Below, in pieces: positions 19,980 to 64,000 of a stretch of 64,000 bases of DNA (the first letter of the stretch is position 1; every line of letters starts with the position of its first letter). The stretch is from the NCBI GenBank assembly GCA_008690995.1, contig VRMN01000004.1, forward strand, positions 868,001-932,000. The letters are read 5' to 3'. Position numbers and translations under genes: made by a program. A model generated the notes under the pieces. That model was not told the DNA's origin. It saw nothing but the letters and a program-made list of their open reading frames with translations, and ran no database searches. The DNA comes from Porphyridium purpureum (taxonomy: Eukaryota).

Positions 19980-20197
19980 CTTCAGCTCGCGCGCGCCACA
20001 GCGCTGTGCACCACGCCACGATCTCAGTGCCCCGCCTTCGGCTCTCCGGCGTTCCACACCCGCTTCCAGCAGCGTTTCCGTCTCTTCCTTCCCTCTGTCT
20101 CTCTCTCTCCTCTCTCTCCATCCACCGTCCATCACATACCATCCGGCAGCTCAACTCAATTGTCCCGCAACGCGCCGACGAGATCGAGGGAAACCGG

Positions 20198-35967: not shown

Positions 35968-36113
35968 CGCTATCGCTGTGGGCACCCGCGCCGCCACGCA
36001 CCTCGAGTGGCATGTGACGGATGCCTCTCAAACCCTTTCGCTGTCGTGACGAACGCTCCGAACAACGTTGCGAAAGTTATGCGCAGGTGATCTCCTATCC
36101 GGCTTGAAACAGG

Positions 36114-37987: not shown

Positions 37988-38228
37988 TGTTATGCTGTGT
38001 GCGCGAGCTAGGTGAACCGTATCCAGCCAATACTAGTCAGAGACGTGACAGCATGGGAGAATCGTACAAGCATGACATCTCAGAAACGTCTGCGGCGGCT
38101 GCGATAGTTCAAGTTAGGCGAAGAGTGTTTGTCGTGAGTGGTAATAAAGGTTGGAGCGTCGACACGCGGGTGAAGAGTCGATTGCCGAGGGGACCTACCG
38201 GGTGCGTTAGAGTCACGGCTCTATAACA
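37988..38228 (+). repeat. Copia 5' LTR
   Basis: Direct repeat of 43227-43467; AATAAA at 38143. Confidence 0.97.
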
Positions 38229-38346
38229 CAAACACTTTCAACTCCTCCGAGGCGCGAAGGAGCGTGGAGTAAAGCACAACGCGTATTTGGGGGTCCGTTG
38301 TGGGACTAAAAGCTCAGACGCGTGGTGGTAGGAGAGGCCAACAAGG

Positions 38347-43200: not shown

Positions 43201-43226
43201 GCGATGCATGATGACGATTGGGAGTG

Positions 43227-43467
43227 TGTTATGCTGTGTGCGCGAGCTAGGTGAACCGTATCCAGCCAATACTAGTCAGAGACGTGACAGCATGGGAGAA
43301 TCGTACAAGCATGACATCTCAGAAACGTCTGCGGCGGCTGAGATAGTTTAAGTTAGGCGAAGAGTGTTTGTCGTGAGTGGTAATAAAGGTTGGAGCGCCG
43401 ACACGCGGGTGAAGAGTCGATTGCCGAGGGGACCTACCGGATGCGTTAGAGTCACGGCTCTATAACA
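43227..43467 (+). repeat. Copia 3' LTR, preceded by short purine-rich tract GGGAGTG
   Basis: Direct repeat of 37988-38228. Confidence 0.97.
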
Positions 43468-44088: not shown

Positions 44089-47000
44089 TTGCCTTAGTTG
44101 TCCACCTTTTGTAACCCCTTGTGGACGACTTCTACGGTCTTTTTTTTCTTTTTCTTTTTCTTTCTTTTTTGTGCACATGTACTTTGTGCCGGCTTGAATT
44201 GGCGCACCAACGTGCCCGTGACGGACTGTTAGGCCGTTGAACCGCTGAACCTTTACCATCTTTTGTGTCCTGTGACAGTCTTCCGCTTACCAAATGTCGC
44301 ATTCTTCCGTCACGAGCAAACTAGCGCCTACTGCCTTTTTCAGTATCAAGATGACGAAAAGGTACCACAAGCAGAATCCTTACAACGCTACAAGCGCTCA
44401 GACTCGCTCGGTTATGAGCCCAGCATTTGGCTACGCAATGGAAACAATGAACCGAGACCCGCTCTCCCCTCCGCCAACAGATAGTACCCGCGACCTGTCT
44501 GGATGGCGTCGGGCCGTCGCACAGTGGAACGAATTGCATAATTTGGCCATGAATTCGACAAATGCTCAGCGCCGCAAAACAGCGCTTCCGCAAGAAGAAT
44601 GAGCATCCCATCAGCAAATGGTGCGTATCGGCTTGGCGCATGGGCTCGCTGACAACCTGTCTCTTGGCCAGCTCCAGTAAGGTTCTGGCCTTCAACTGCT
44701 GATGGGCATGTTTGATCCGCCAAACAAACTTAGTTGTGCCTTAATTCGTGCCCGTCTTATGTCTGACTTATTTCGCCTGTACCGCAATCGTAATGAAGCA
44801 TTGCTACCTTTCAAATACCTCTTTGACGCCTAGAACCAGCAAATGGGGCGCGAAGGCATCAATTTGACACCCCTGGACGAGCTGCTTGGCCTCAGACTGT
44901 TGGACGCTGCCAACTTGAAACCTGAGGAAAGCAACACCATTCTTTTCACAGCCATGCAAGCGTGTGGAGATACGGATTCTGCTCGCACATTGAAAGCAAT
45001 GCAGATCACCTTGCTCTCTACGCGAGATACATCCCAGAACTCTGTATCCTGCACGACGGAGAGTAAGGGGCCAAGCCCCGCTTGCAAGTAGGCTTACCAT
45101 TGGTCTTTGCGCCACCGAAAGCGTCCGAAAAACCGAAAAGACAATGCGTCAAGAAAGGAAAACAGACCACAGGATCCGGTCGAGTCAACGCAAGCAAAGA
45201 CCACCAATGGTTTGTCGTCTGGCACATTGTCCACGACCGCCAGCAAGTTGCTCACGAGCAATCTATCGAACGTGACCTTTGCGTACGCAGCCAGACCGCA
45301 TGCACTCAGTCATACTCACGCCTTGGTTAGCACTGGCGCAGCAAAGAGCATCATTGGCTACATGCAAGCAGCGAAGATTGGAGCCACAATCCTCGAGCTT
45401 CGAGAGAATGGTCCCCAGCTGCACCGTTTTGGCTCTGGCACGGCAGCTGGTGCTTTTACCAAGATTATCGAACGAGCATGGGTTCTCGTGACCGGTACAA
45501 TCGATATGGAGTTCTTCATCATTGAAGGCTTATCACCATGCATTATCGGCAATGATGTTCTTCAGGACGCTCGCATTCAGAATCAGACGATTCTGGTGGA
45601 AGACGAGTCTATTCCTACACTCACAATTGGTGACTTGCAGTATATCAACATTACCCACGCGGCACAGCATGCAGTCAGCAGTACGACCCAGGCTCTTCTG
45701 GATCCCGCTGATGCCGTCCGTCGTTTACATGCCCGTACTCATCATCGTGTGGCAGACATTGAGACTATTCTTCTCCGTGCCGGCGAAATCAGTTCACCTC
45801 TCCAGCCAGAGCTCCGGGAGCTGCTCGAGAAGGAAGTCGAACACTGCAATTCCTGTTTTCGGACGGTATTGCCTCAGCCGAACCGCAAGGCAAGCTTCTC
45901 CCCTGTTGCCGCTCATTTCGGCGAGCGTGTGTCGATGGATGTTGTCTTCTTGAAGTGTGTTTCGCACTCTAAGCCGGTTCTTCACCTTATCGACGATGCT
46001 ACGGCCTACAGCGAGGTCTACCCGCTCAAGTCGCTGCACGACTCTTCCATTATGCATGGCATCGCACTTGCATGGATCGACAGACATGGACCTCCTGCCA
46101 TCCTCAAAGCAGACGCAGCATTCGCGGGGCGAAAAGTACAGGCGTATGCTACGGCTTCCGACATCCAGCTAGCCATTTTGCCATCTCGCCGCCATCAGAA
46201 GATGGGCATTGTCGAGCGAAAGAATCGCGAAATCAGAAAGCATTTTCATCGCCTGCAAGAAAGTGTGCCGTCTTCTCGACGAGAAGCGGACTTCGTTGCG
46301 CACGTCGTTAGAGCTGCTTTTGTCAGCAACATTGCAAACGGACCCGTGTTGCCTCGAGTTTTGAAATGGCGCGAGGATATACTCCAGTAATTGGTACCGA
46401 CGGACTATACCCTCCACTACAGCCGGAGCTGCGACGACGCGAGCAGCGCCGTCAGGCTCGCCGACGTCTAGCCGCTATCACCCGCACGCAACCATTGAAC
46501 CATGAGGACGCACTCTCGCTCACACCCGGCGAACAGGTGTACGTGTATATCAACGACAAAGGCAAGGCTAAGACGCCAAGCGCTTGGCGTAGAGCCAGTG
46601 TTGAGGCCGCCGACGGTACTGGCGTGCATGTCCTCGACCACGGCAACCGTCGCTTTGTTGCGCTTGAGGACGTCGAAAAAGCGCCAATGTTTCAACCATT
46701 CGTTGGTCGAGAATACAGAGACTCTAGCGACACAGATGACCGCACAACCAATGATCAATCTTCGGACAGCAGCGACTCCGAGTCACTCGACGACCAAAAC
46801 CAGAATAACCATGAAATAGACCTGCTTGCCGCTCGGTACAACACGACCGACTTTCGGTTGCTCTCACCGCGTGGAACGAAACGAACAACGATTGACTATC
46901 CTGATGCTCCGGAGCCGTCACCATCTAACGATGATGTTCGACGCAGCGTGCGCGCCCGGCGTCCTACCCAACGCCTTATCGAAAGCATGATGGCTCCTTC

Positions 47001-48235
47001 TCATCCGGAGCTCTCTCGTTTGCTCATGCTGTTTGGCAACAAAACGTTTGGCCAAAACGCCGCTCTGAACTCCGGGTGTTCACCTGCGCTTTTCGAAGCC
47101 GCGCTGAAAACGGAAATGAGCAAATGGGAAAATCAGTATACCGTGTATTCGCGCAAGGAAGTTCCTGTTACGGCAAACATAATCGGCAGTCATGTACTGT
47201 ATCAAGTCAAGGACACCGATCCCGTTGACGACAATGCCGCCGAGCTGAAGTTGAAGGCAAGACTATGCCTGTGGGGGCACAAAAATCAGGAAAAAGACTC
47301 CATCCGGGGCGACGCTCCAACCCCTCCGCTCGTCGCAATTCGTTTGGTCCTGGCCTTGGCGGCCGCTTTTCCAGCTTTAACTCTTGCTAAGATAGATGTC
47401 ACTGGGGCCTACCTGCAGAGCGGACCAATGGACCGGACAGTCTTCGTTCGACCTCCGCAGCATTTGAGCCAAGGAGATGTTTTGTGGAAACTCACCGCAA
47501 AGCCCTATGGCCTTAAAGATGCTGGGCGACAATGGCTTCTTCGCAGTGACGCAGAAATTCGAAGCCTTGGACTGGTGCAGTCCAAGCTTCTTCCGCAAAT
47601 CTTTTTCGGAAAAGTACTGGTAGTCAAATATGTTGATGACTTGCTTGTTCTCGGCGAGGAGGATGATGCTGAGAGTTTCCTGACCCGGTTTGCAGAGCGA
47701 TTTCGCTCGTCTCCTCCTGTGACTAATCGCTTCTCTTACATTGGCTGTGAAGTGTCACGCAGCAACCAAGGGGTATCTATTGACATGACTCGCTATCTGG
47801 AAAAGATTCAGAGTGTGTCGGTACAACGCAGACAGGATACAGTGCCCCCTTCCGCCATGCAGCTCAGTCAGAAACTCGCCGGGTCAATCAACTGGCTTGG
47901 TCTAACGGTCTCCCCTTTCGCATGTTTTACCGCATCGTACATCCAGCAACAGTTGCCTTATCGGTACAAATACTTCGAGATATCAGTGGAATTGCGAAGG
48001 AGTTGATGCGTACGCCAGCCAAACTTTTGTACAAGGAATCATTCAGTTTCGCAACAGCACACATCCTCGTTTACTCGGATGCAGGCTTCCCATTTGGAAA
48101 GAACGTGGTGTATACGGAAGCAGCCTGAGTCCTGCCGTTGGCTGACGAGCAGAACCATGCTCTCCTCCTCGATTGGGAGAGTAGCAAATCTAAGAGGGTA
48201 ATCTGCAGCCCTCTCCACGCTGAGGTGCGTGTCTT
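43985..48235 (+). mobile_element. Degenerate Copia (GalEa-like), cut within RNase H by a Gypsy LTR
   Basis: Stops and frameshifts (about 44600, 46370, 47970, 48120); PR VSTGAAKSIIG; IN SMDVV, LIDDAT, WIDRHGPP, GIVERKN; RT LKARL, DVTGAYLQS, YGLKDAGRQW, YVDDLL; RH VYSDAGF and DWESSKSKRVICSPLHAE. Confidence 0.85.
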
Positions 48236-48531
48236 TGTTACCAATGCTGTGCCTTTTTACTCTCTCTCTCTCTCTGCCTTTTCTGTCTCCGAGCAAGACC
48301 TGACCGGCTAGTCCGGGCAGGCGCGCCGCCTTTTTATACCCTTACTTCCGCCAGGGACAGCAAGGTGCCAAGAGAAATGACAATGCAAATCATTGGCATT
48401 TCTGTGCAAGTCTAGAAGGTTTTGGAACCTCTAGAAGCTTCTAGAAACGGTTAAACGGTCTACCGGTTTAACGGCTTACCGGTTTCGGATTAACTGAACC
48501 GTTCTAGGTCACTGGGGTCGAACGGATAACA
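48236..48531 (-). repeat. Solo Gypsy LTR (LTR-A, 296 bp) with non-matching flanks
   Basis: Homologous to 54022-54322 and 59194-59474; TGTTA...TAACA; flanks GTCTT / CTTAA. Confidence 0.95.
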
Positions 48532-50525
48532 CTTAATATGACGAAGGCTGTGCTTCAACGGTGCGGACGATACTTTGTGCGGTGCATGACACGACGATAG
48601 CATCACTTCTAGTCAGACGACACAGCAAAGCAGAAATTGTGCATTACAAGCATCGCGAATTCTGCAAACTTTCTAAGAGCTTGCACTCTACTAAGTTTGC
48701 ATCGAAGGAGGTTATATTTTTGTTCTTGATCGCTATTGCGAATTTTCTCGTCAATGTGGAATACGGAGAGCAGTTGGCGACTTCATTTGAAGTTGTCCGA
48801 GGATTTGCGCTACTATCGCGCTAATTCTCTCAACTGACAACCAATACACGCGCTCCTGAAAAGGCACGTCGGAACAAGCAAGCAGTCAAAGGTGTTGCTG
48901 GTAACCCGTCTGAGAAACCAACAGCTATAGGAGCTGGGTACACGCTCAATCAGGATGCACCACTTCTGAAATACGGCTCACTGCTTACACCGTAAGTCAG
49001 CCTTGTGCGGCTCATTCCGTTCTATTCGCGCATGCATTCGCCTATATAAGGGTGCCCCGTGACAGAAATCTTCTTTTCTTCGCTCTTCTAGTCCTCTTCC
49101 CCCTTAAGGGGAGTCACAGTAAAAAGAAACATATCGAGTTGGCAAAGAACAAGCGTCTGGATTTTACGATATGGAAACAGCCAAAAAAGGCACACTGAGG
49201 TCTGGACGTGTCGAATTGAATGTTGATATTTTGAATCGCTAGCTAGGAGATACCGCTCGTGCTTGCGTCAAGGAATCCGCACTTGTGCGAGGCATGTCAC
49301 AAACTTGCCTCATCAAATCTCTTGACGGTGCGAGATCTACCTTTGTGAATCCCAATACCAGGAAACTTCGATTCGCTACCATTGCAGGCCTCCGCGTCGA
49401 CTCTCACGCCAATTCTTCCACCATCGAAAGTGACTATAAAAATGATCATGACGAAATGATCAGGTAGATCAGGAAGAGGAGATGAATTCCAACATGGTTG
49501 AAAGTAAAATCAAATTCAACGGCCGCGAGAAAATTGAATCCAACGAAAGTGACACTTATTCCCTGAGAGATCACAAAAAACTAAGAAATGAGAACCATGG
49601 AGATTGAGTGATTGAAGCTGGCCAGAGCCTCATGGCTTAACTTGATTGCGACTCGGTTCGCAATCTGGATCTTCAAAATCTGAGTCTGAGCCTGAGCACA
49701 CTTCTCCACATTGCGAGAAAAAGGAAGCAAGGAGAGAACTGCCGGAAACGAAAATATCGCAAAAACGACAACGGTGACGTATGCATCTGTATTTTCGCAG
49801 AGTCCGTAGGAATGTAGTTGTGCTGGTAGATCTCGTCTTCTTGGAAGTTTGCGCTTCTGCTCTCATAGACTAATTGAGATGATAATCGCAATATAAATGC
49901 GATCTGATATTGCCAAATCACACAGCATCCATCGCGAACTTCCCTTTTTATGCCACTCAGCAATTAATTCTGGGATTGAACCAAGTATCACACAGAAAGC
50001 ACTTCATGCAGAACTCGATGAGTAGCGGAATGGCCCGTATGATGAAGTCTCACGTCTCAATTCCTGCGAGATCAAATAATATGGGATGACACATGGTGTA
50101 GAAAATGAATTTTGAAACTCAACAAGTGCTGAAACTTCAAGCTGGGCCGGTGTCGAAAAGTAACCGTGGCAAAGACAAACAGTGGCTGTTGAGAGATGCT
50201 TTCGCTCCACGGATAGCCGCATTGCGCCTCGTCTGCATGACCCCACCAATTCATAAGTACTTAATTTACAAAATTGACCTACGAGAAACTTAATTGAAAT
50301 GTGGCCGCAAGGACCGAGACATGTATGTGCGACCGCGTCCTAAAACATCAGGTTGAAATACTGTGCAAACTGCATGCAAAAACTCACAGTCACATTGGCA
50401 CAGGAAGACACTGGCTCTTTGCCGGCGAAGAAGATTTGGTAGAAATGGGATTGCAGCGACTGTCGCGAGCGACCTGATGCAGGTCTCAGTACAGCGAGTA
50501 CGCAGAGGTACAGTCCCAAAGTGTA
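48532..50525. repeat. 2.0-kb duplicated non-coding segment, copy 1
   Basis: Colinear with 59475-61468 at constant offset 10943; about 15 substitutions seen by eye. Confidence 0.97.
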
Positions 50526-50775
50526 AACAGTCCATAACCGTGTTTTTAGGGTTACTCGCCCGTTAATACTCCCGTTAATACTCTCCACTAATGCGGAGAT
50601 GTAATTCGTTAATACTAGAATCCTTAACCGTTAAGGATTTTAGGGTTCCTCGTAACCATTTGGTCTGACTGTACCTCCAGGGACAACAAGTTTTGTTTTC
50701 TACGCCAAAGAATTTATTTTTTTGAATTTACTAATATTTAATATTTTTCAACCTCCTGTACCCCGTCTACATGGA

Positions 50776-53700
50776 TCATTCTGTGCTGTGAGCGTGGTCA
50801 CGGAATTGACTCGGTGACCACGTCAATATTGACGGCACCTGGTAAGTATTAAGCGGCCCCGTCACCGAGCCGTGGTTCGCATATGCGATGGCCTTCTTGG
50901 CAAGGTACCACGCGATCTTCATGTCGTCCGCCAGCTCTGGGTATGTTCTCATATGAGCAGCCACGCCTTGTCCTGTCCTGCACTCGTCGCATACGCAGAG
51001 CTCTCGCAGTGGCGGCGGTATTAACCCGGTGCCGCCTTCCTGCAGCGAGACCAAATGATCGCTTAGTGCCTGCCGCATGCGGAGCTTGGTTTCCGACACG
51101 AAGTAATCGCACCAGCAGCGAGCCCGCTGTCGCTCATATGAAAGGATATCCTCCATCATGCGCTGACCCGGATAATGCCGGATATACCCAGGTCGCCACG
51201 TACTGTTCATATGTTGGCACCAGGGCAAGTTCGGCGGGTGAGGCCAATCTGGGCTCGAGCCAATTGCCTGTACGACCGGTCGGATATCCCAGTACATGTT
51301 GTACTCGTTGACGATATCGTCCCACACAGGAAATCGGCGCGTGTCCAGAACGTCAAACGCAAGCTTGCGGGATATTCCATACGGCCTGCGTCGATTTCCA
51401 GGGAAGTACTCCAGCAACTCCTGGATATCCTCCACTTGCAAAGCCATCTGGCGAGCCCGGGCCCGGCGCATTTCGACGAGCATTATGCGCACAATATTGT
51501 GGCATATGCTGTGCGCGAAGTGGCGCCGCGCCTGGCCTGCTACCAGTTCGACGAGCGGTGGGTTCGTGGATATCCGCCACCTGCCCGGTCTTCTGGGTTC
51601 GGCGATGCAGCCGGCTAAGGCAGCAAAATCTGTGACGTGCCATGTTAAAAGACATCTCTCCATATGGTCGACGAAAGCGTCCGAGAAGCCTTCCGTACAG
51701 ATTGCGCCGGCAAAAAGGAAGGGCGCGAATGCGTAATTTTGTTCGCATATGCGGCAGACGCCAACGGCCTTCCTGCACAATTCGCACATGCTATAATTGC
51801 GCATGAACCTGTCATCCACGTGAAAGTTCGACAGTTCTATGCTGTACATGTTCGCCACCTTAAAGGCATATGTCATGCGCAGGCAGCTAGTGCATGTCGG
51901 GTGCAGGGTCGTGCACTCGTAGATGAACTGGTCTGTCACCGGAAATTGACAGATCAAGCAGTCTTGGATATCCACGTGTGCGGACGCGGGAAGTGCACGC
52001 ACAGCTGCTGATATCGGACTTCGCACGATGTCCACATCGCTCCAACTTTGGCTGGCCGCTGGCAATCGCATATGCCCATAAGTACCGCCTGCGAGGCTGG
52101 ACGTGCGGTACGTTTGCGGGGCAAAAGGCTCCTCAACACGGGTGCCATGTGGCGTGCGCGGCTCGGATGGGCGTGGTAGCATCTCCGCCGCACGTTCAAG
52201 GCCCCTCTGCAGCTGCCAGCCATCCACCCACAATCGCCTGAGCATGGCGACCCAGACACTATATGGCGCGGACCCCCCATACTCTATTGATCGCACATTA
52301 GATGTGCACTGGTGTCCGCGGTACATATGTCTTCGGGTCACGTTGCCAGATAACCATTGCACCCACACGCTGCTGCTCCCCCGATCCCAGGCAAAGGCAG
52401 TCTCTTGCGCCTTCCAATACTGGATTGCTGCCGTGTCGAGCTCGATGGATGCTGCGTGCGAGGCTGCATCAATATTGAGGTCTTCAGGAAGGCCAAAGTT
52501 GATCCTGCTACCTCCGTGCTCCATATGGAAGCTGCCAAACACCTTGGCAATGGCTAAGTCCGTGTCCCTCGGTGTGGCATGCAGTTCGGGCAGGTCGTCC
52601 CACAGGTAGTCATGCGTCACATGTGCGAATATTCGATTGTGCGCCTCTACCGTGTGGTCCCATAGCTCAATGCCCCATTCCAGGATGTTGCCCATGCCGA
52701 CATCGAAGCGTGGTGCGAGTAATTCTGGGACGTGCGTTCCATCTGGATTTATCGCGTCCCGGAACGCATACAATTGCGTCCTCGCAATCGAAGGCCAAGC
52801 ATACAGCTGAGCGCTCCGCAGCCGTGCTACACATATGTCGACGGCGTGCCGCTCGGAGTAGCGTGGGACGGTATAAGTCTGCCCATCTGCAGAAATCTGC
52901 TGGGTCGGGACATTTTCCATCCTGAAGGCTTCGCGCAGCCGGCGCCCATGATACTCTGTATGGTGTGGCGGCCAGCGAAACACCCTTTGCGGCTGTTCAT
53001 CCATCTCGGTGGGTCCATATGGGAAGACCGACCCCGAGTAGTCAGCGGATACGACACGGCTCCGGAGCTCTTGGACCAAGTTTCGCATATGCGCAAGAGC
53101 AGCATCTCTGCCAAACCATATGGTAGCATACGTGCTGATATCGAGGAGCGTTGTCGCAAAGTCCATCATCACGCGCACGGCGCGGATGCGTTCTAAGCGC
53201 GCCAAGCATCCCTTCGGGAACAATTCGTCACCGTCTCTTGCCCTGCGCGGACGTGTCGGCATCGTCTCCACATGGAGCCTTGGGCCTTCGTGGACGAAGA
53301 TGACGGCCGGGTATCCTGTTGTGTTGCACGGGCATGCAATATTGCGCGGCAATTGAGGAAGCCGATAAGCGTTGCGAGTAAGCCTCGAGATGCGCTCCAC
53401 CGCATCATCGTGGCCGCGAACCACCAACGCAGCATCATATGATGGCGCACCGTGCGCAGCAGGCATAAGCGTGCGCAACTGGTAAAAATGAGCATATGCA
53501 CTGTTCCAGCCGTCACTTCGTGTCGGCTTTGGGCTGAGCTCATATGGACCAACGGTTGTCAGGCGGCGAGGCCATTCGCACCTCTGCTTCAGCAGCCACG
53601 CCTCCAAGTCTAGACTCTCTTGAATGCGCGCACGTCTCGGATATCCGAGTGCACCTGCGTCAGTGCGCCTGCGCTTATGTCCATATGACAGCTGGCGCGG

Positions 53701-53988
53701 AGCACTTTGGTCGGCAATTGCGCCCGTGAATTCGTCATATGACCACGCAAAGAGGCGTTCCGTGCGCTGCGCCGCCAGAAACATGCGATACAGTGCCACC
53801 TCCCACTCTCCCATATGAGCTGAATAGTGGTGCTGCCCATATGGGGTTTCTGCGATCCAGTGGGCCACCGTGACGCCACCACGTAGACACTTGAGAGCTC
53901 CAACAATATTGCTGAAGTACATCAAAAACGCATGGCTCACTGCGATGCCCAGGTGCGCCTCGCGGGCTCCGATATCGGCGTGAGACAT
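50776..53988 (-). CDS. Orphan 1070-aa protein with C3HC4 RING finger and extra Cys/His clusters
   Basis: Uninterrupted 3.2-kb ORF; CLIC-x11-C-x3-H-x2-CTSC...CELC then CRIC; HKRRR NLS-like; AT-rich 3' region with AATAAA (minus strand, 50718-50713). Frame stays open into the LTR, so the N-terminus may be truncated. Confidence 0.75.
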   Translation of the reverse strand: MSHADIGAREAHLGIAVSHAFLMYFSNIVGALKCLRGGVTVAHWIAETPYGQHHYSAHMGEWEVALYRMFLAAQRTERLFAWSYDEFTGAIADQSAPRQLSYGHKRRRTDAGALGYPRRARIQESLDLEAWLLKQRCEWPRRLTTVGPYELSPKPTRSDGWNSAYAHFYQLRTLMPAAHGAPSYDAALVVRGHDDAVERISRLTRNAYRLPQLPRNIACPCNTTGYPAVIFVHEGPRLHVETMPTRPRRARDGDELFPKGCLARLERIRAVRVMMDFATTLLDISTYATIWFGRDAALAHMRNLVQELRSRVVSADYSGSVFPYGPTEMDEQPQRVFRWPPHHTEYHGRRLREAFRMENVPTQQISADGQTYTVPRYSERHAVDICVARLRSAQLYAWPSIARTQLYAFRDAINPDGTHVPELLAPRFDVGMGNILEWGIELWDHTVEAHNRIFAHVTHDYLWDDLPELHATPRDTDLAIAKVFGSFHMEHGGSRINFGLPEDLNIDAASHAASIELDTAAIQYWKAQETAFAWDRGSSSVWVQWLSGNVTRRHMYRGHQCTSNVRSIEYGGSAPYSVWVAMLRRLWVDGWQLQRGLERAAEMLPRPSEPRTPHGTRVEEPFAPQTYRTSSLAGGTYGHMRLPAASQSWSDVDIVRSPISAAVRALPASAHVDIQDCLICQFPVTDQFIYECTTLHPTCTSCLRMTYAFKVANMYSIELSNFHVDDRFMRNYSMCELCRKAVGVCRICEQNYAFAPFLFAGAICTEGFSDAFVDHMERCLLTWHVTDFAALAGCIAEPRRPGRWRISTNPPLVELVAGQARRHFAHSICHNIVRIMLVEMRRARARQMALQVEDIQELLEYFPGNRRRPYGISRKLAFDVLDTRRFPVWDDIVNEYNMYWDIRPVVQAIGSSPDWPHPPNLPWCQHMNSTWRPGYIRHYPGQRMMEDILSYERQRARCWCDYFVSETKLRMRQALSDHLVSLQEGGTGLIPPPLRELCVCDECRTGQGVAAHMRTYPELADDMKIAWYLAKKAIAYANHGSVTGPLNTYQVPSILTWSPSQFRDHAHSTE

Positions 53989-54021
53989 CGGGTCCGACGC
54001 GGCCGTCTCGTCACGGCGCAA

Positions 54022-54322
54022 TGTTACCAATGCTGTGCCTTTTTTTACTCTCTGCGTCTTCTTCTTACCTCTTCTCTCTCCGAGCAAGACCTGACCGGCT
54101 AGTCCGGGCAGGCGCGTCGCCTTTTTATACCCTTACTTCCGCCAGGGACAGCAAGGCGCCAAGAGAAATGACAATGCAAACCATTGGCATTTCTGCGCGC
54201 GTCTAGAAGGTTCTGGAACCTCTAGAAGCTTCTAGAAACGGTTAAACGGTCTACCGGTTTAACGGCTTACCGGTTTCGGATTAACCGAACCGTTCTAGGT
54301 GACTGGGGTCGAACGGATAACA
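54022..54322 (-). repeat. Gypsy 3' LTR (LTR-B, 301 bp)
   Basis: Adjacent to PPT; TATA-like GGGTATAAAAA on minus strand at 54132-54122. Confidence 0.97.
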
Positions 54323-54441: not shown

Positions 54442-57400
54442 TCATTCAGAGTCAGACTCTTCGATAATTTTCATCAAGTCTGGCTCAGAATCGGACGCCG
54501 GCATTTCGTCGGGTACTTCTTCATCATTTTCCCCTGCCATGTAGTCTTCGCGTCCATAGTATGGCTTCAGATGTTGGATCGGAAAAACATCATGACAAGC
54601 CACACCCTCAGGCAAAACCACTCGGTAAGCATGCGAGCTTACCTTCTCAATGACAGGCACCGGACCAAGAAACTTTGGTGCCTCCAAATCACTCTTGTTC
54701 GGCCGCAGTTGCGGCGCCGTGACCAACACTTGATCACCAACTTGAAACTCCCGGGCATCCTTGCGTCGATCGAAGAACTTCTGCATTCTCCACTGGGCTT
54801 CGATCAAATTGTCGCGGACTTCTTCATGGACTTTGCACAGGCGAAACCAGTGCTCCGCCATGTCCTTTGTCTGTCCGTCGCGCGCAGGCCTCCACCCTTC
54901 GCTCGGTGGAAACCAAGGATCCCTTCCATATACCACTTTGAACGGCACGAATCCAGTGGCACTGCTTGGTGCAGAGTTGTACGCAAACTCGTACAACGGC
55001 AAGTCTCGCACCCAGCCACTATTCGTCGCCATTAACTTGAGCATTTCCCGAATCACGCGGTTCACTCGCTCAGTTTGGCCATCTGTCTGCGGGTGGTTGG
55101 CGGTAGACATTGCCAACTTCATGCCCACCCGCTTGCTCAGCTGCTGCCAAAATGTTGACGTAAACAGCGGATCTCGGTCCGATACAATCGACTTGGGGTA
55201 TCCGAAGCGGCTCACGACGTGCTTCACGAACAAGTCAGCGCAACGCTTTGCTGTCAAGTCCTTGCGCGTCGGGATAAACAGCGCCATCTTCGAATAGCGA
55301 TCCACCACAGTCATGATTGCATCACAGCTGCCTTCGCTCCGAGGCAGCTCCGTCACGAAGTCCATCGAGATGTCGACCCAAGGTCCTTCTGGGATCGACA
55401 AGGGCTTCAGCTTTCCAAACGACCGATTCTCTGACTTTGTCACTTGGCATGCATGACAAGTCTTCACAAAACGGCTCACGTCTCGCTTCATCTTTGGCCA
55501 GTAGAAGCGAGTGATCAAAGATGCATACGTCGTGTCTGCCCCACGGTGTCCTGCTGTCGGGATATCGTGGTGGAGTTGCATGACACGCTCTCTGAACTTC
55601 CTCGGCACGCAAACGCGATTCCTCAAGTACAAGAGCCCAGCTTCGGTTCGAAAACCCTGGTGGGTCGGTAAATTACCCATCAAAGTACCAAAGTCTGGGT
55701 CACTCGAGTACGAACCCACGAATGCTTGGAAACTCGTACCAAATTCATCACATCGAACCTGGTACTCTAGCGCATGTAACTCTGGCTTCCTCGACAAAGC
55801 ATCGGCTACCACGTTCGACTTTCCCTTCACATAGTCGATTATGATATCAAACTCGGCTAAAAAGTCCAGCCACCGTGCTTGCCGGCCATTCAGCTCCTTC
55901 TGCGTCATCAAATGTTTCAACGCCTCATGATCTGTATGCAGCACAAACTTTGCTCCGTATAGATAAGGTCGAAACTCTCGCAGACAGTGAATGACGGCCA
56001 TGAGCTCACCTTCATAACTGCTGTACCTGGTCTCTCGGTCCAGCAGCTTCCTTGACGTAAACGCGACCGGTCTGCCTTCCTGTGCCAGCCATCCCCCCAC
56101 CGCGACTTCAGAGCGGTCCGTGTACACCTCAAATGGCTTTTCAGGGTCTGGCAAGGCCAACACCGGCGCTTCCGTCAACATCCCGACAATCTTCTTGAAG
56201 GCCGACTTGCCTTCATCTCCCAGTTCGATCAGCTGCTTCTTCGACTTTGCGTTCTGCAACAGCGAAGTCAGCGGCGCCACGACGGTAGAGTATCCTTTGA
56301 CAAACCTGCGAAACCAGTTTGTCATTCCCAAAAAGGATCTCAACTCCGTCACCGTCTTTGGCACGGGCCAATCTCTCAAAGCTTCCACCTTCCGTGGATC
56401 CATCTTCACGCAACCGTTTCCCACAATGTTCCCCAGGTATTCGACTTCAGAAACGAAGAAGCTGCACTTCTTGCGCTTCAAACGATACCCCGCCTTTTGC
56501 AAGCGCGACAACACTTCCTTCAGGACCTCAGCATGCGACTGCCTATCCTTGGTAAAGACCAAAATATCGTCCAAGTAGACAATGACGGTCTTGTCCAGCA
56601 GATCTGCAAACAGCTCGTTCATGGCCCTCTGAAATGTTGCCGGCGCGTTGCAAAGACCAAACGGCATCACATGGAACTCGAACTGTCCGTACCTGGTCTG
56701 GAACGCGGTCTTCGGCACGTCCTCTCTCCGAACACGCAACTGGTGGTATCCCGATGCCAAATCCAACTTTGAAAAACAATGAGCTGCGCCCAGTCGATCC
56801 AGCAACTCATCCATGTTTGGCAACGGATACCGGTCCTTCACAGTTGCGTCGTTCAACGCCCGATAATCGACGCACATCCTCATGCTGCCGTCTTTCTTCT
56901 TCACGAGCAGCACGGGTGCTCCAAACGGGCTCTGACTCGGCTGGACGAATCCTTTGTCCAGCAAGTCATCCAAAGTCTCTCGGAGGACTTTCAACTCCGC
57001 AGGGCTCAGTCGGTAGACCCTGCCCACTCTCACAGGCTTTTCATCTTTCAGCCTAATCACATGCTCCACTGTTCGGCTCTCAGGCAGCCCTCGCGGCTCC
57101 TCGAACAGATTTTCGAAATCATTGAGCATCTTCTTCACAGAGTCAGCTTCTTTGCGCTCCACTGAACAGGGCTCCTCCCTTCCTTTCAGCACGCCGAGGT
57201 AGCACTCTTCTACCTCCTGACTCTTCAACAGCCGACGGAGCTCTTTCCGCGGCACCAGCATCTGCGTCATGCTCCAGGCCCTCTTCTCTCCGTAGGCCAA
57301 CATGCCAGACTGCCAATCAATCACTGGGTTCTCCCGCTTCAGCCACTCCATGCCCAAGATTGCGTCTTGTCCCGCAATCCGGCAAATGGCAAAGTTAGCG

Positions 57401-57840
57401 GTTCCTGAGTACCCATCGCTCAGTGTAAACTTGACATTGGAAATTTCTCCGGCTGTCTCCAATACAGACCCGTCTGCCAGGGTCACATGATCTCTCTTCC
57501 ACGACGCCTTCTGCTTCAGGCCGTCGGATTTCAGCACAAAGTCCACGCTCATAAAGTTGTCCGTCGCGCCACTGTCAATCAAAAACGTGGCCTCTCCGTC
57601 GGACTTGTGCACTTTTCCTCGAACTCGAAGAAGCATGGCAGCTCCCATCCCTCCAAGTTCCTTGATCACGGGCTGATTTGCGCTCGAGTTTCGCCCACAA
57701 GGTGTCGGACAGCCAGACCTTGGCTTACCAAGGCCACCACAGCGGTCTCCATTGCCGCCCCTAGAGGTCTCGTAACGTCTGCGAGCCTCCTTTCCCTCTG
57801 ACTGTCCGAGGAACCTCTCTACTCGAGCTCCTCGTTTTTT
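54442..57840 (-). CDS. pol: Gypsy Pol (PR-RT-RNase H-IN), -1 frame relative to gag, no chromodomain
   Basis: LIDSGAT; RMCVDYRALN, LDLASGYHQ, MPFGL, YLDD; IN H..AGH..CHAC, SMDFV, SDRD, HPQTDGQTER; GPY/F-like tail. Start given at the slippery site. Confidence 0.95.
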   Translation of the reverse strand, partial: KKRGARVERFLGQSEGKEARRRYETSRGGNGDRCGGLGKPRSGCPTPCGRNSSANQPVIKELGGMGAAMLLRVRGKVHKSDGEATFLIDSGATDNFMSVDFVLKSDGLKQKASWKRDHVTLADGSVLETAGEISNVKFTLSDGYSGTANFAICRIAGQDAILGMEWLKRENPVIDWQSGMLAYGEKRAWSMTQMLVPRKELRRLLKSQEVEECYLGVLKGREEPCSVERKEADSVKKMLNDFENLFEEPRGLPESRTVEHVIRLKDEKPVRVGRVYRLSPAELKVLRETLDDLLDKGFVQPSQSPFGAPVLLVKKKDGSMRMCVDYRALNDATVKDRYPLPNMDELLDRLGAAHCFSKLDLASGYHQLRVRREDVPKTAFQTRYGQFEFHVMPFGLCNAPATFQRAMNELFADLLDKTVIVYLDDILVFTKDRQSHAEVLKEVLSRLQKAGYRLKRKKCSFFVSEVEYLGNIVGNGCVKMDPRKVEALRDWPVPKTVTELRSFLGMTNWFRRFVKGYSTVVAPLTSLLQNAKSKKQLIELGDEGKSAFKKIVGMLTEAPVLALPDPEKPFEVYTDRSEVAVGGWLAQEGRPVAFTSRKLLDRETRYSSYEGELMAVIHCLREFRPYLYGAKFVLHTDHEALKHLMTQKELNGRQARWLDFLAEFDIIIDYVKGKSNVVADALSRKPELHALEYQVRCDEFGTSFQAFVGSYSSDPDFGTLMGNLPTHQGFRTEAGLLYLRNRVCVPRKFRERVMQLHHDIPTAGHRGADTTYASLITRFYWPKMKRDVSRFVKTCHACQVTKSENRSFGKLKPLSIPEGPWVDISMDFVTELPRSEGSCDAIMTVVDRYSKMALFIPTRKDLTAKRCADLFVKHVVSRFGYPKSIVSDRDPLFTSTFWQQLSKRVGMKLAMSTANHPQTDGQTERVNRVIREMLKLMATNSGWVRDLPLYEFAYNSAPSSATGFVPFKVVYGRDPWFPPSEGWRPARDGQTKDMAEHWFRLCKVHEEVRDNLIEAQWRMQKFFDRRKDAREFQVGDQVLVTAPQLRPNKSDLEAPKFLGPVPVIEKVSSHAYRVVLPEGVACHDVFPIQHLKPYYGREDYMAGENDEEVPDEMPASDSEPDLMKIIEESDSE

Positions 57841-58625
57841 GACTCCAGCGAGTCTCCCTCCAGCTGCTGGATAGTCTTCCTTGCCTCGGGACACTTCCTG
57901 GCGATGTGTCCCGGCCTTCCACAATTCCAGCATTTGAGCTCGGTACGAACACGCCTCTGACCCTGCACATGTCCCAGCTCCATCGGGACAGGTCCTTCCT
58001 GCGCTGCGCGACCGAAAAATGGCGTCCTCACACTTGAATCACGCACGCCGCGGGTCGCATGAATGGCGTCGTCCACGACCACCGCCACCTGCGCAGCCTC
58101 CGCGAACGTACTCACTCCTCGCTTGTACACTTCCAAGCGGACCTCGGGCTTCAGACCCCTCACAAAGCGGTCCATCATTTCTGCGTCCGACAAGTCCGGA
58201 ATCACGAGTGCCGCGTCCTGAAAAGCCGCCACATACGCATGGGCCGGGCCTTTCTGCGAAAGACGCGTCAACTTGTCCCTTGCACGCCTGATCGAATCCT
58301 GCGGCGTGAACCGAGCACTCACGAGGGCAGCAAAATCATTCCACGTCGTGGGGATCTCCTGCGGGTAGCGCTCGCAGTTCAGAACCCACCAATGAAGCGC
58401 CTCTCCCTCGAAGTAGTCTGATGCCAAGTCCACAGCACGCCTCTCCGCAAGCAGACGTTTCTCCAAATCGTCCGGGTGGATGCTCTCCAACAACCGGCCC
58501 AAGATCTTCTTTCTCGCCTGGAACAACCACGTCTTCACAACCAGAAGGTCCCTCTTCCCGTCGAACCTCATCAGACGGGCCTCCTTCGGGCCACGTGGTC
58601 CCAGCGTCTCCGAATCAATCTCCAT
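57819..58625 (-). CDS. gag: Gypsy Gag
   Basis: FDGKRD..VKTWL, GEALHWW, F.RGLKPEVR, GPVPMELG, knuckle CWNCGRPGHIARKC. Confidence 0.93.
   Translation of the reverse strand: MEIDSETLGPRGPKEARLMRFDGKRDLLVVKTWLFQARKKILGRLLESIHPDDLEKRLLAERRAVDLASDYFEGEALHWWVLNCERYPQEIPTTWNDFAALVSARFTPQDSIRRARDKLTRLSQKGPAHAYVAAFQDAALVIPDLSDAEMMDRFVRGLKPEVRLEVYKRGVSTFAEAAQVAVVVDDAIHATRGVRDSSVRTPFFGRAAQEGPVPMELGHVQGQRRVRTELKCWNCGRPGHIARKCPEARKTIQQLEGDSLESKNEELE
57834..57840 (-). promoter_or_regulatory. -1 ribosomal frameshift heptamer A AAA AAC
   Basis: In gag frame (TCA AAA AAC) four codons before the gag TAG; pol is in the -1 frame. Confidence 0.85.
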
Positions 58626-59176
58626 GCTTTCTGGAAACAAGCACACTCAACGACGACAACGACACAAACAGCGAGTCTCCGCTGCTCACACTCTCGAACA
58701 GCTGCGCGCAACACGAACGGGCTTCGATTGCCCTCACGAACACGAACCGACACACGAAGCAGTCCTCTCACTCACACACACGCACAGCAATCCGCTCACG
58801 CACACACAACAAAGCACACAGCAATCCTCCTCTGTTGCGCTGGATGGGGAGCGGCCCGGGCCTTTGCACTGGGGCGGGGATTATAGATGCGATCTTGTAT
58901 GGAGGTGTTCGGCGCCTACCTTCGCAAAGGTGGTCGTGCGACACTAAGATGAATCCTAGTGAAGGCTGACCGTTACGGCTCTTGCCTACTAATACGTGCT
59001 AAGGCAGAGAGCGAGTCCGCCGTCAAGGCCTAGGCCTATCGTACAGCCAAGACTGAGACCCGCTTCCACCCGTCGCACCCTCCGGATCGACTTACTCGAA
59101 CCCCCTTACCCGCAGACTCTCCCACCCAGGCAACCCCAGAGAAACTCTAAGAGAACCTTAGAGCAACCCCAGGTAA

Positions 59177-59193: not shown

Positions 59194-59474
59194 TGTTACC
59201 AATGCTGTGCCTTTTTTTACTCTCTGCGTCTTCTTCTTACCTCTTCTCTCTCCGAGCAAGACCTGACCGGCTAGTCCGGGCAGGCGCGTCGCCTTTTTAT
59301 ACCCTTACTTCCGCCAGGGACAGCAAGGTGCCAAGAGAGATGACAATGCAAATCATTGGCATTTCTGGAACCTCTAGAAGCTTCTAGAAACGGTTAAACG
59401 GTCTACCGGTTTAACGGCTTACCGGTTTCGGATTAACTGAACCGTTCTAGGTCACTGGGGTCGAACGGATAACA
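59194..59474 (-). repeat. Gypsy 5' LTR (LTR-C, 281 bp), chimeric, with 20-bp deletion
   Basis: Deletion between TTCTG direct repeats; left part identical to LTR-B, right part shares SNPs with LTR-A. Confidence 0.95.
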
Positions 59475-61468
59475 CTTAATATGACGAAGGCTGTGCTTCA
59501 ACGGTGCGGACGATACTTTGTGCGGTGCATGACACGACGATAGCATCACTTCTAGTCAGACGACACAGCAAAGCAGAAATTGTGCATTACAAGCATCGCG
59601 AATTCTGCAAACTTTCTAAGAGCTTGCACTCTACTAAGTTTGCATCGAAGGAGGTTATATTTTTGTTCTTGATCGCTATTGCGAATTTTCTCGTCAATGT
59701 GGAATACGGAGAGCAGTTGGCGACTTCATTTGAACTTGTCCGAGGAATTGCGCTACTATCGCGCTAATTCTCTCAACTGACAACCAATACACGCGCTCCT
59801 GAAAAGGCACGTCGGAACAAGCAAGCAATCAAAGGTGTTGCTGGTAACCCGTCTGAGAAACCAACAGCTATAGGAGCTGGGTACACGCTCAATCAGGATG
59901 CACCACTTCTGAAATACGGCTCACTGCTTACACCGTAAGTCAGCCTTGTGCGGCTCATTCCGTTCTATTCGCGCATGTATTCGCCTATATAAGGGTGCCC
60001 CGTGACAGAAATCTTCTTTTCTTCGCTCTTCTAGTCCTCTTCCCCCTTAAGGGGAGTCACAGTAAAAAGAAACATATCGAGTTGGCAAAGAACAAGCGTC
60101 TGGATTTTACGATATGGATACAGCTAAAAAAGGCACTTTGAGGTCTGGACGTGTCGAATTGTATGTTGATATTTTGAATCGCTAGCTAGGAGATACCGCT
60201 CGTGCTTGCGTCAAGGAATCCGCACTTGTGCGAGGCATGTCACAAACTTGCCTCATCAAATCTCTTGACGGTGCGAGATCTACCTTTGTGAATCCCAATA
60301 CCAGGAAACTTCGATTCGCTACCATTGCAGGCCTCCGCGTCGACTCTCACGCCAATTCTTCCACCATCGAAAGTGACTATAAAAATGATCATGACGAAAT
60401 GATCAGGTAGATCAGGAAGAGGAGATGAATTCCAACATGGTTGAAAGTAAAATCAAATTCAACGGCCGCGAGAAAATTGAATCCAACGAAAGTGACACTT
60501 ATTCCCTGAGAGATCACAAAAAACTAAGAAATGAGAACCATGGAGATTGAGTGATTGAAGCTGGCCAGAGCCTCATGGCTTAACTTGATTGCGACTCGGT
60601 TCGCAATCTGGATCTTCAAAATCTGAGTCTGAGCCTGAGCACACTTCTCCACATTGCGAGAAAAAGGAAGCAAGGAGAGAACTGCCGGAAACGAAAATAT
60701 CGCAAAAACGACAACGGTGACGTATGCATCTGTATTTTCGCAGAGTCCGTAGGAATGTAGTTGTGCTGGTAGATCTCGTCTTCTTGGAAGTTTGCGCTTC
60801 TGCTCTCATAGACTAATTGAGATGATAATCGCAATATAAATGCGATCTGATATTGCCAAATCACACAGCATCCATCGCGAACTTCCCTTTTTATGCCACT
60901 CAGCAATTAATTCTGGGATTGAACCAAGTATCACACAGAAAGCACTTCATGCAGAACTCGATGAGTAGCGGAATGGCCCGTATGATGAAGTCTCACGTCT
61001 CAATTCCTGCGAGATCAAATAATATGGGATGACACATGGTGTAGAAAATGAATTTTGAAACTCAACAAGTGCTGAAACTTCAAGGTGGGCCGGTGTCGAA
61101 AAGTAACCGTGGCAAAGACAAACAGTGGCTGTTGAGAGATGCTTTCGCTCCACGGATAGCCGCATTGCGCCTCGTCTGCATGACCCCACCAATTCATAAG
61201 TACCTAATTTACAAAATTGACCTACGAGAAACTTAATTGAAATGTGGCCGCAAGGACCGAGACATGTATGTGCGACCGCGTCCTAAAACATCAGGTTGAA
61301 ATACTGTGCAAACTGCATGCAAAAACTCACAGTCACATTGGCACAGGAAGACACTGGCTCTTTGCCGGCGAAGAAGATTTGGTAGAAATGGGATTGCAGC
61401 GACTGTCGCGAGCGACCTGATGCAGGTCTCAGTATAACGAGTACGCACAGGTACAGTCCCTAAGTGTA
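59475..61468. repeat. 2.0-kb duplicated segment, copy 2
   Basis: Matches 48532-50525; homology ends at AAGTGTA. Confidence 0.97.
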
Positions 61469-61513
61469 CTAAACGTACAATTATGGGGTGTACCGTGTGG
61501 TACAGCTGACTTA

Positions 61514-61699
61514 TGTTGAGGGCCGCGGGATTGGGTTATTCCGAGGGCTGAACCCGCCGGGCAAGCCGTTGCGGCGCCGGAAGGCGGGTATAAAACAGAG
61601 CCAGCGGCAGCTGAACGGAGAAAAGGCTAGGAAGAAGAGAAGAGGTAGAGGAGGAGAGAACGAGAAAAAAAGGAAAAAAGCTCCGTTTGTGACGCAACG
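61514..61699 (+). repeat. Possible LTR fragment of a related family
   Basis: GGGTATAAAA then purine-rich GAGAAGAGGTA and AAAAAAAGG blocks in the same order as in the Gypsy LTR; TGTTG...CAACG ends; no TSD. Confidence 0.3.
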
Positions 61700-64000
61700 C
61701 AAACTTTGCCCACAATTATTGTGCGACACATCTCTCCAGCTTACAAATTCATGGATGATATATTTCTGTGTGGCCTAGACACAAACAAGAATTCCTTTGT
61801 CCAAAACCTCAACTCGAGCTTCATGACTTGCAAAATTGAAATATGAACATCTAGTATCCGGGAAAAAGCATTTCGTATGCTTTGGTATACCGTTTTCACG
61901 AAAGACTACGCAATAAACTCATTTCCAATAAGGATTCGGGGACAACCGTCTGCGCAATTTCAAAGCGTGTGTTTACTTCAGCTGGAGGTCTGAATGGATA
62001 AAGGCATTCGAGTTCTCCGGTTGTAGCATTCATGGCCTCGTAGCTGCATGAGTTACCGCCGATCGGACTTGACAACAAGCTGCTACGAATCAACGATTTT
62101 GTTCTGGAAAAGATGCATCGCTCCACTCAAAACACTTTTTGTCAAGTTGATTTTGCATTCGGAGGCAAATGCATGATCACTGTCTTCTCTGACGCTGAAT
62201 ATCCTCATGGGAAGAGTATTTCATACGTGCAACAATCTTGTGTCTTCAGATTGCTTAATACAATCAAATAACTTGCTGTCATTTCGAAGAAGTGCGGCAA
62301 AAAGAAGGTTGTAACTTACGACACTATCCATACCAAGTATACGATCATTTTCAATGAGCTTTTCTATGCCAAACTCTAACGAGAGATCGATCTTCGAAGT
62401 TCCCGGTGTGAACTTTCGCATTGCAAGAAAGTTCGACTGAAAGGAAGTTGAGGAGATCCTGGGTACATTGAATGTCTAGAAATATGCACATATCGAGAAA
62501 TCTTTCGCTTGCCTTCGAAAAGCTCAAGATGGTGACCGGATCAAATACATCTCGTGCGAGGGTGTTCACAATCTGACTGACGTCGCCACCAAACGCGGCT
62601 CAAAAATTATATAAATTGGTCACTGGTACGTTGATATAGATTGCCATGGAAACCTGAACGCAGGCGAGTGGTAGAGTACGCAACTAGTAAGTACTTTTTA
62701 TGTAGACTAGATAGTTTGCCAGCTGAAGCAAATCGAAGAGCGGTGAGACTTGCGTCCAAGTAATGGAAACTCACTTGCGCGCGTTAGTTTAGTAAGCTTT
62801 TTTATACTGTTCTGGTACTCGCAAAGCGCGTCCACGCCCCTTGTCGGTGTCTTCTCCTTCTTATGCCACAGCCAGCGGCCACCATGAATAGGTCACTTTT
62901 GAGCGTGCGGAAGCCGCACGCTCGCACGAAATGTGACCATGATGACCCAGTTTTCAAAGCTTGAGACCGGAAGCGACCACCAATCATTGCGTATGCGTAA
63001 TCAAAGAGTCCAGCGTCTATTAAGAAAAGGTCGTCATGGCAGGCTCTGCCACTCCGAAGCGGGAGTTACAGAGCCAAACAATCCAAATATTGTAATGTCA
63101 GAAAGCAAGATGTTCTTAATCTGTGAATTCGAGAGGAAAGCGTCCGGGCACTCGGTCCTGTCAGCTTTTCGTGGACCACATTGAGTGTGATTCAATATAC
63201 GAGCCAGGCACAACCTACCATAATTATGGGTATCTACGTATGCGCGTGTCCTCCGGAATAATGTAAAACTTGCATTTTTGTGTTGGAGATAAAGCAGCCT
63301 GCCTTGTCAAGGGTCCAGAACCACGAATATGGGTTTGAAAGAGGCCATTCGTTGGAGCGGAGGGCTTTGAAAAGGAAGCGCGTGAGCCCGGACGTTGAGG
63401 GGCGCGACCCGGTGGTACAAATTCCACGGGAGGACGCAGTGTGACGGGATGAATCCATATCCGGGCTCGGACGTGTAAATTGGCGGGCAAGGCACAAACT
63501 AGCACATTTTCCAAGCCGGGCGCCTTCGTAACTGTTGGGAGACTGGAACTCTTTTCAATACGGGGTTACTTAAGGCGCCGCGAAAGGACTTTTGATGCAG
63601 ACTATTATATCCAGTGAGGCATGCTTTAGCCGGCTGCAATATTCATGAGGCCGAAAAAGGGAGACAACGGAGCCGAATCGAATCTAAACAGGAAATAGAA
63701 ACGAACGCGTCAAGAAGGAAAAGGTGCTTTCTTTCGAGGTAAATGTGTGAGCAAAGTGATGTAAGTTGAAGGAGATAGAACAACACTTTGACGGGGATTC
63801 TTCTTTGCTTTGCATCGTAAACAACACATCTATTGACAGGGTGGATTTCGGGCTGCGAACAGGTTTGACCGGAATGGAGTAAAAGACTTTGAATATGTCA
63901 ATATGAGAGAGCGGTATAAAATGAAAGTGTCGCCGCGGTTGTGTGCACATAGCTGTAATACGGCGAGAAGCGCAGACCTCTGGTATAAATGACCTGCTGG

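Follow-up and report, generated by a model that had tools for sequence, protein, structure and literature searches.

Within a 64,000-nucleotide stretch of Porphyridium purpureum DNA (GenBank assembly GCA_008690995.1, contig VRMN01000004.1, positions 868,001 to 932,000; hereafter the window) a single orphan open reading frame (ORF), P0001, carries a real and strong excess of perfect palindromes centred on ATAT. The ORF lies on the minus strand, running from its ATG at 53988 to its stop at 50776, encodes 1070 amino acids and holds all 41 ATAT sites considered here, the first core in the direction of reading being at 53972 and the last at 50826. Thirty-eight of these sites form palindromes of 6-14 bp between 50821 and 53978, made up of 22 CATATG, 10 GATATC and 6 AATATT, with a mean gap between sites of 79-85 bp. 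A recount reproduced exactly the CATATG coordinates, the numbers of the other two hexamers and the positions of six palindromes named in an earlier note on this DNA, but two of its figures needed correction. CATATG is indeed rare in the remaining 60.7 kb of the window, where it occurs four times and not about twice (with 16 GATATC and 12 AATATT), and the long palindromes of 10-14 bp are present, but number 19 and not 18.

The excess was measured by arm length, defined as the number of mirrored base pairs flanking the ATAT core. Arms of at least 1 were found at 38 sites, of at least 2 at 31, of at least 3 at 19 and of at least 4 at 6. In 5000 synonymous shuffles, which kept both the protein and its codon usage, the corresponding means were 9.8, 4.0, 1.8 and 0.7 (maxima 20, 11, 8 and 4), with a mean of 20.3 ATAT in total and a maximum of 33. 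None of the 5000 matched the gene on any of these five counts, although AATATT alone was matched in 2/5000. The observed counts were likewise reached in 0/5000 codon permutations, and those for arms of at least 1 to at least 4 in 0/2000 under Markov models of order 2-4. Codon or amino-acid bias as the cause, which the earlier note had discounted, is thus ruled out by the synonymous shuffles and by the permutations. CATATG also occupies all three codon phases on the coding strand as had been claimed, with 8 sites read as His-Met, 10 as x-Tyr and 4 as x-Ile-Cys/Trp, and the His-Met dipeptide occurs 8 times in the protein versus 1.4 expected.

The excess was absent from the 18 other ORFs of the window, gag and pol of gypsy and copia elements included, which together hold 58 ATAT, 8 of them with arms of at least 2 and 2 with arms of at least 3, and every other 2-kb bin in the window was likewise at background. 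An assembly artefact is excluded because two contigs from sequencing run X1, corresponding to 50749-52606 and 52589-54051, show no differences from the assembly, and because RNA reads from two runs of another study extend across the ORF. The second of these contigs crosses from the ORF 30 bases into the adjoining long terminal repeat (LTR), LTR-b. Three outcomes had been named beforehand as speaking against the excess, namely an explanation by shuffling, an equal density in ordinary host genes and an artefact of assembly, and none of them appeared.

Shape of the palindromes

Among 4-nt spacers ATAT stands apart, with arms of at least 2 at 31 of its 41 occurrences, compared with 7 of 42 for the runner-up. 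Once the ATAT-centred sites had been removed, most spacer lengths from 0 to 10 were at the level of shuffles, those of 2 and 6 being about 2-3 standard deviations (SD) high. A general excess of hairpins was ruled out, ATAT being the only enriched spacer. No enrichment was found in the ORF at AATT, TATA, TTAA, CATG, GATC or four other cores, and self-complementary cores other than ATAT had arms of at least 2 in 18 cases versus about 15-17 expected (AATT 1/12, CATG 2/21). Of 92 cores with one mismatch, 13 had such arms. Codon permutations gave 8.2 of 122, and the observed value was reached by 22 of 300 permutations, so that there are a few decayed sites at most.

The specificity for one core bears on the proposal that copies of the messenger RNA (mRNA) pair through the palindromes and so form homotypic dimers or clusters, co-packaging being one conceivable use. 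Homodimers at 31 sites have predicted energies of -5 to -25 kcal/mol, versus +3 to -6 for the hairpins, and palindrome-driven RNA self-recognition in silico is described in the accessible text of one report (PMC13079385). Any self-complementary core would do for this purpose, however, yet the others are not enriched, and the accessibility of the sites is no better than in shuffles. Self-pairing of RNA of the kind described leaves the single-core specificity unexplained, and pairing between mRNA copies is considered improbable.

Counted over the 41 sites, the arms are paired at 38, 34 and 23 sites at the first three positions and then at 12, 12, 6 and 6, where chance gives 25%. Pairing is at chance from position 4 and the symmetry therefore ends 5 bp from the axis, 3 bp past the core. 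The pairing at positions 1-3 (0.93, 0.83 and 0.56) exceeds the 0.40, 0.32 and 0.26 found under a fixed degenerate consensus, and there are 38 distinct 10-mers among the 41 sites, which bears out the earlier claim that neither one binding site nor a repeat family is involved. The longest palindrome is 14 bp. ATAT without mirrored flanks has a density of 0.93 per kb in the ORF versus 0.90 in host DNA, so that some 36 cores are additional, core and arm having arisen together.

A number of other origins were considered and rejected. Purging of unprotected ATAT might be suspected as such sites are low compared with shuffles (12/5000), yet their density equals that of the host. Helical or nucleosome periodicity was rejected, and so was an overlapping gene in another frame, the longest candidate having 175 codons. 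A mobile palindromic repeat family such as the Rickettsia RPE, REP or miniature inverted-repeat transposable elements (MITEs) was also dismissed, there being no repeat family within the ORF, arms that differ and no Rfam match; Rfam and transfer RNA (tRNA) scans were empty.

Transcription, copies and variation

The orphan gene is transcribed from its coding strand. RNA cover extends over 50711-53998 in runs X21 (mean depth ~3-18) and X22 (~16-54), and in both the first mate lies on the plus strand, an orientation that for most stranded libraries indicates coding-strand RNA. The ORF may be 5'-truncated because the open frame continues upstream past the ATG as far as the LTR.

Diverged relatives were found in run X1, where a contig of 2490 nt showed 15 differences in 153 positions from 52454-52606, at a depth of 184 versus 12-16, and a second contig showed 15 differences in 106 positions from 52589-52694. 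The stretch covered by these alignments, 52454..52694 on the minus strand (~amino acids 432-512; 86-90% identity to the X1 relatives, records 2 and 4), is possibly the most conserved core of the gene. Many variant contigs were present in run X6 and may be paralogues, alleles or strain differences; the gene is probably multicopy. Twenty sequencing-run entries from nine studies contain part of the stretch, at least half of it in eight; runs sharing few words with it were left aside.

Variation was analysed for 40 of 184 recorded differences, 30 of these 40 lying within the ORF. Nineteen of the 30 listed were at third positions and 17 were synonymous versus 30% expected (p 0.002), an excess that, as far as these differences go, shows the gene to be under purifying selection. 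Five fell in arm positions 1-4, all at bases unpaired in this copy, where 1.1 were expected (P 0.004); four restore a pair and none breaks one. Paired arm positions were broken by none of the 30 (2.0 expected, P 0.13). Two of the 30 break a core, where ~1.5 would be expected by chance, and one makes a new ATAT. The variants among copies therefore point to a turnover of sites, but they are suggestive only and do not separate copying from selection.

Origin of the palindromes

The explanation given preference, which falls just short of being probable, is that the sites were built in a mobile element's own DNA by a strand-symmetric, codon-blind process of copying after 5'-AT-3', and we infer copying over selection. 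A DNA end would stop after 5'-AT-3' and would be sealed as a hairpin or re-primed on the opposite strand, after which 3-5 bases would be copied back. A single length-neutral event of this type would yield both the ATAT core and the mirror of the upstream bases, while events that break the frame would be eliminated by selection on the protein. Where a palindrome is already perfect, the event would simply restore it as it was, and sites would thereby build up.

Arm pairing was found at 45 of 60 positions where the amino acids fix both bases versus 50 of 63 where synonymous change is free, and is thus blind to codon cost. No bias of G·U over A·C was seen on the coding strand at positions 1-4 (10 vs 13). 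A symmetrising process at the level of DNA is favoured because pairing is blind to codon cost and unbiased between strands and because differences between copies are mostly synonymous. The earlier note had proposed such a process, acting while selection kept the frame open, and this stands as the best reading with partial support. Its more particular suggestion of a generic template-switch correction of hairpins does not fit, because only one loop sequence is enriched and the symmetry stops 3 bp out. A wider proposal, possible but held with more reserve, is that the gene represents a family of mobile elements in eukaryotes that is as yet undescribed. The element's own enzyme for replication or cutting would write ATAT-centred 10-bp dyads into its DNA, or would read the dyads by shape on either strand, with enough force to remodel the encoded protein.

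A number of observations weigh against copying. Cores closed by A have longer arms (p 0.028), which fits selection over blind copying. Selection is also the better fit for the site spacing, which is more even than random (coefficient of variation 0.66 vs 0.93, P ~0.01), for the GC-richness of arm position 2 (28/34, P 0.011) and for the absence of TATATA from the ORF (P 0.009-0.02). One transition would complete the pair at 16 of 28 arm mismatches, and together with the two variants that break a core this implies that sites decay and are not kept perfect. Neither a multi-base replacement between copies nor, among the differences analysed, an in-frame insertion or deletion (indel) in the ORF was seen, and no enzyme or replication gene was found.

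The even spacing, the GC-rich arms, the missing TATATA and the longer arms on A-closed cores are features that favour selected recognition signals, short hairpins with an ATAT/AUAU loop or cruciforms, read by a protein of the element in packaging, replication or anti-silencing. A self-complementary loop on strict Watson-Crick stems would make such a signal usable on either strand. A fixed loop with variable stems is also the design of packaging signals in single-stranded RNA viruses, many of them unstable alone according to the available part of one account (PMC5699041), and the intactness of paired arm positions in all 30 listed variants is in keeping with selection. However, only 6 of 41 hairpins have a closing-pair probability >0.5 in the coding RNA, and the folding context is no better than that of shuffles; when the palindromes were fixed and their flanks shuffled, as RNA or DNA and on either strand, the real flanks were equalled by between 5 and 15 of the 25 shuffles. 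Overall folding of the ORF RNA is somewhat stronger than in shuffles (-1046 vs -995, SD 20), which may be caused by the palindromes themselves. Compensation for stability was not seen in stricter tests (Spearman p 0.72; variance P 0.38), arm length being independent of stem strength, and the breakage of cores is near chance. No capsid or Rep gene was found in the Pfam, phmmer and PHROGs searches. Tests of a single-strand hairpin function were negative or weak and give it no support, and selected signals, in a form working on both strands, are the main rival of copying but are regarded as somewhat unlikely.

Comparison with known systems

No published description of such a pattern was found in a literature search that fell short of most subscription journals. 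In its working the pattern comes nearest to quasi-palindrome correction and the coding palindromes of Nematomorpha, but its core is fixed and its reach is short, unlike theirs. In the mitochondrial genes of Nematomorpha perfect inverted repeats lie in working coding genes and shape their amino acids, and in the accessible text the authors suggest conversion or template switching over function (PMC6649704). The likeness lies in palindromes inside functional coding sequence, the orphan gene being transcribed and most of its listed variants synonymous. The nematomorph arms, however, extend to hundreds of bases and are nearly always perfect, with no fixed centre stated in the text available (PMC6649704), whereas here the arms end at 3-5 bp and the centre is always ATAT, in one nuclear gene. 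Template switching at quasi-palindromes in yeast also perfects imperfect palindromes by copying, coding DNA included, but as far as the accessible portions of the reports extend it needs a prior inverted repeat, accepts any spacer and acts genome-wide (PMC5677150, PMC3820800). The orphan gene in contrast shows a single core, no spacer and a sharp length limit, and is one gene.

HIP1 of cyanobacteria is one fixed 8-mer that is over-represented genome-wide and in all reading frames. The palindromes of the orphan gene are also over-represented in all reading frames, but their enrichment is confined to one ORF of the window, and the pattern is not HIP1-like because the word is not fixed. A drive of the HIP1 type linked to a methyltransferase, or adenine methylation at ApT, might still favour or seed the sites. 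All three phases are occupied and the protein is shaped by the sites, T is missing before the core, and the axis follows ApT, the dinucleotide that carries N6-methyladenine (6mA) in green algae in the consulted part of the source (PMC12633428). A fixed motif cannot yield arm symmetry, however, the window's host genes show no such excess and nothing was found on methylation in this organism, so that methylation is very doubtful as an origin.

The AXXA packaging signals in satellite tobacco necrosis virus (STNV) are tens of short, variable and marginally stable stems with a common loop motif spread through coding RNA, in the available text (PMC5699041). The orphan gene resembles them in its 31 evenly spaced sites with arms of at least 2 and one loop motif, and differs in its self-complementary loop, the lack of a G·U strand bias, a folding context equal to shuffles and the failure to find a candidate capsid. 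A likeness of another kind is offered by VANC of the VANDAL transposons, an accessory protein whose short target motifs have accumulated in its own element, as set out in the accessible part of the study (PMC5735166). These targets are non-coding and often tandem repeats in the same text (PMC5735166), whereas the sites here are coding and differ from one another, and P0001 has no Pfam match.

Short, length-limited palindromes also arise as P-nucleotides when DNA hairpins are opened in Ac/Ds excision, and the accessible text describes hairpin-forming transposases that leave short palindromic insertions (PMC5873905). The sites could on this basis be footprints of repeated transposon insertion and excision, either duplicating AT or targeting ATAT, and the orphan gene does sit within a transposon cluster. 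In the same text, however, such footprints belong to single excision sites, usually alter length and centre on one base (PMC5873905), whereas here there are 38 frame-keeping sites with one core and a spacer-free axis. The frame is open for 1070 codons, no indel in the ORF was seen among the differences analysed, and the neighbouring LTRs do not have ATAT at their junctions. Footprints are the least probable of the explanations considered.

Look-alikes were sought by five pattern scans in mostly prokaryotic collections with little eukaryotic DNA, two of the scans covering 4 and 35 of their 64 parts, and none of the 438 loci retrieved carried the signature. The viral loci numbered 247, of which 194 had 10 or more ATAT, and their highest share of distinct sites with arms of at least 2 was 0.31 versus 0.68 here; one striking viral match, L113, proved to be a tandem repeat. 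The best of the 191 further loci reached 4/8 (uncorrected P 0.002), on a single contig that had been retrieved two times.

Known palindrome-rich coding DNA has either one fixed word, as in HIP1, or long arms without a stated fixed centre, as in Nematomorpha. Here the 4-bp centre is fixed, and the mirrored arms are free and end one half-turn from the axis. This would point to an enzyme that cuts or stalls at a defined site and has a defined reach, or to a protein that recognises local symmetry and not sequence, and in both cases a mobile element would have supplied new biochemistry. The wider proposal of an undescribed element family, if true, would amount to a sequence-centred, arm-free symmetry code unlike that of any known motif, repeat or packaging system. 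As the gene is expressed and has diverged relatives, drive versus selection for coding palindromes is directly testable, and the share of ATAT with mirrored flanks offers a homology-free means to locate the rest of the element.

The protein P0001

Judged from its sequence, P0001 is probably a RING-bearing accessory protein of the ubiquitin ligase or anti-silencing type. RING-HC domains have the spacing C-x2-C-x9-39-C-x1-3-H-x2-3-C-x2-C-x4-48-C-x2-C. A Cys/His pattern of this C3HC4 kind, marking a putative RING, begins at amino acid 677 and extends to 738 (51775..51960, minus strand), and the spacing was present in 0/20000 shuffled proteins. Neighbours by language model in the Atlas are mostly RING proteins, many of them viral, but with scores of 0.80-0.83, all <0.9, are leads only. 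Lysine makes up 1.3% of the protein, which fits a ubiquitin ligase, although one host gene is equally low. Two basic clusters, HKRRR and RPRRAR, suggest nuclear import.

Searches for homologues were without success. There was no Pfam match, the RING region included, and none in PHROGs or the Protein Data Bank (PDB), while NCBIfam gave a sub-threshold match to ObgE alone (E 0.023). No homologue was found by phmmer among 1.84 billion representatives, in near, shorter (amino acids 660-1050) or longer length classes, or by tblastn in plasmids and phages, and no related locus in metagenome and viral contigs. An Atlas search with amino acids 185-620 was empty. Single-sequence structure models were poor (predicted local distance difference test, pLDDT, 34 and 38).

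Genomic setting

The orphan gene probably belongs to a mobile element, which we infer from its setting in a rearranged transposon cluster, and the candidate element is of an undescribed type. The earlier note had pointed to a viral, plasmid or transposon replicon, for which the window gave no direct evidence: no polB, Rep, capsid or recombinase with the palindrome signature was found there, and the genes of the adjacent gypsy and copia elements are unaffected; no catalytic domain was recognised in P0001.

Downstream of the ORF the 3' region of the orphan segment (50526..50775, minus strand) sees RNA cover fade at ~50700-50750 and contains a motif array at 50526-50670, with three copies of TTAATACT, two of the telomere-like TTTTAGGGTT and a 21-nt hairpin at 50619-50639. 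The array is partly common to a deep repeat in run X1. A 156-bp MITE at 50515-50670 was considered and rejected, its terminal match being only 5 bp and its left part belonging to an LTR-like repeat, R. The uninterrupted copy of repeat R lies at 61404..61728 on the plus strand (TGTCGC...GCGACA), and its duplicate is cut by the orphan segment, with the junction at ~50525/6 inside the first 65 bp of the repeat. The other end of the segment has been replaced by LTR-b.

LTR-b (54022..54322, minus strand) serves a Ty3/gypsy element as its 3' LTR and has an adjoining polypurine tract and a TATA-like box at 54120-54132. The orphan ATG lies 33 bp downstream of it, and on this arrangement LTR-b likely promotes this copy of the gene. 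The LTR families of 54022-54322 (LTR-b) and of 50461-50525 are both abundant in RNA reads, at depths of hundreds to thousands and with many different flanks. The gag and pol of the gypsy element are open at 54442..58646 on the minus strand and show no palindrome excess. They overlap at 57819-58038 (minus strand), and a -1 frameshift is likely there, as the gag stop is closely preceded by A AAA AAC, a heptamer of the slippery type. The 5' LTR, LTR-c (59194..59474, minus strand), is followed by a TGGTATCA primer site and is recombinant, its left half resembling LTR-b and its right half LTR-a, and no target duplication was found for the pair of LTR-b and LTR-c. LTR-a (48236-48531) with 2 kb of flank forms a block at 48236..50525 that is a 98% duplicate of 59194-61468.

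The orphan ORF is not an extra ORF inside an LTR retrotransposon, which would lie within one LTR pair between pol and the 3' LTR. A polypurine tract and LTR-b separate it from pol, LTR-b is not followed by a primer site, and LTR-a is not preceded by a polypurine tract. The simplest history would have the orphan element insert into repeat R and the gypsy element then insert into the 5' part of the orphan element, after which unequal recombination between the gypsy 5' LTR and a solo LTR-a would have duplicated the flank and lost the rest of the orphan element. Such a loss would explain both the absent replication gene and the frame open up to the LTR.

Other features of the window

Host genes for WD40, kinase, SET and Hint proteins read as long ORFs, as in an intron-poor eukaryote, and two proteins of the window are present in a collection of eukaryote sequences. 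A young copia element lies at 37988-43467 on the plus strand, with LTRs 98% alike and a 5-bp target duplication, AACGC; its gag and pol share a frame with a single TGA between them at 39442-39444, which may be a case of stop-codon readthrough or a recent mutation. A broken copia-like element follows at 44400-48235 and 48532-48800, its RNase H region apparently split by LTR-a, on either side of which only 3 bp, CTT, match.

Among the other genes, an intron-less fusion of a GFO/IDH/MocA oxidoreductase with a hexapeptide-repeat acyltransferase at 34099-35997 (minus strand) recalls bacterial sugar-modification genes. Two genes with Hint modules, one of them with DUF305, lie 8 kb apart at 22648-23577 (plus strand) and 31608-33308 (minus strand). 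A glycyl-tRNA synthetase at 16674-20135 (minus strand) combines alpha and beta subunits of bacterial type as a fusion within a single ORF, and an RNase III protein at 23816-26077 (plus strand) has two double-stranded RNA-binding motifs. An imperfect intergenic inverted repeat of ~140 bp (79%) is present at 7875-8013.

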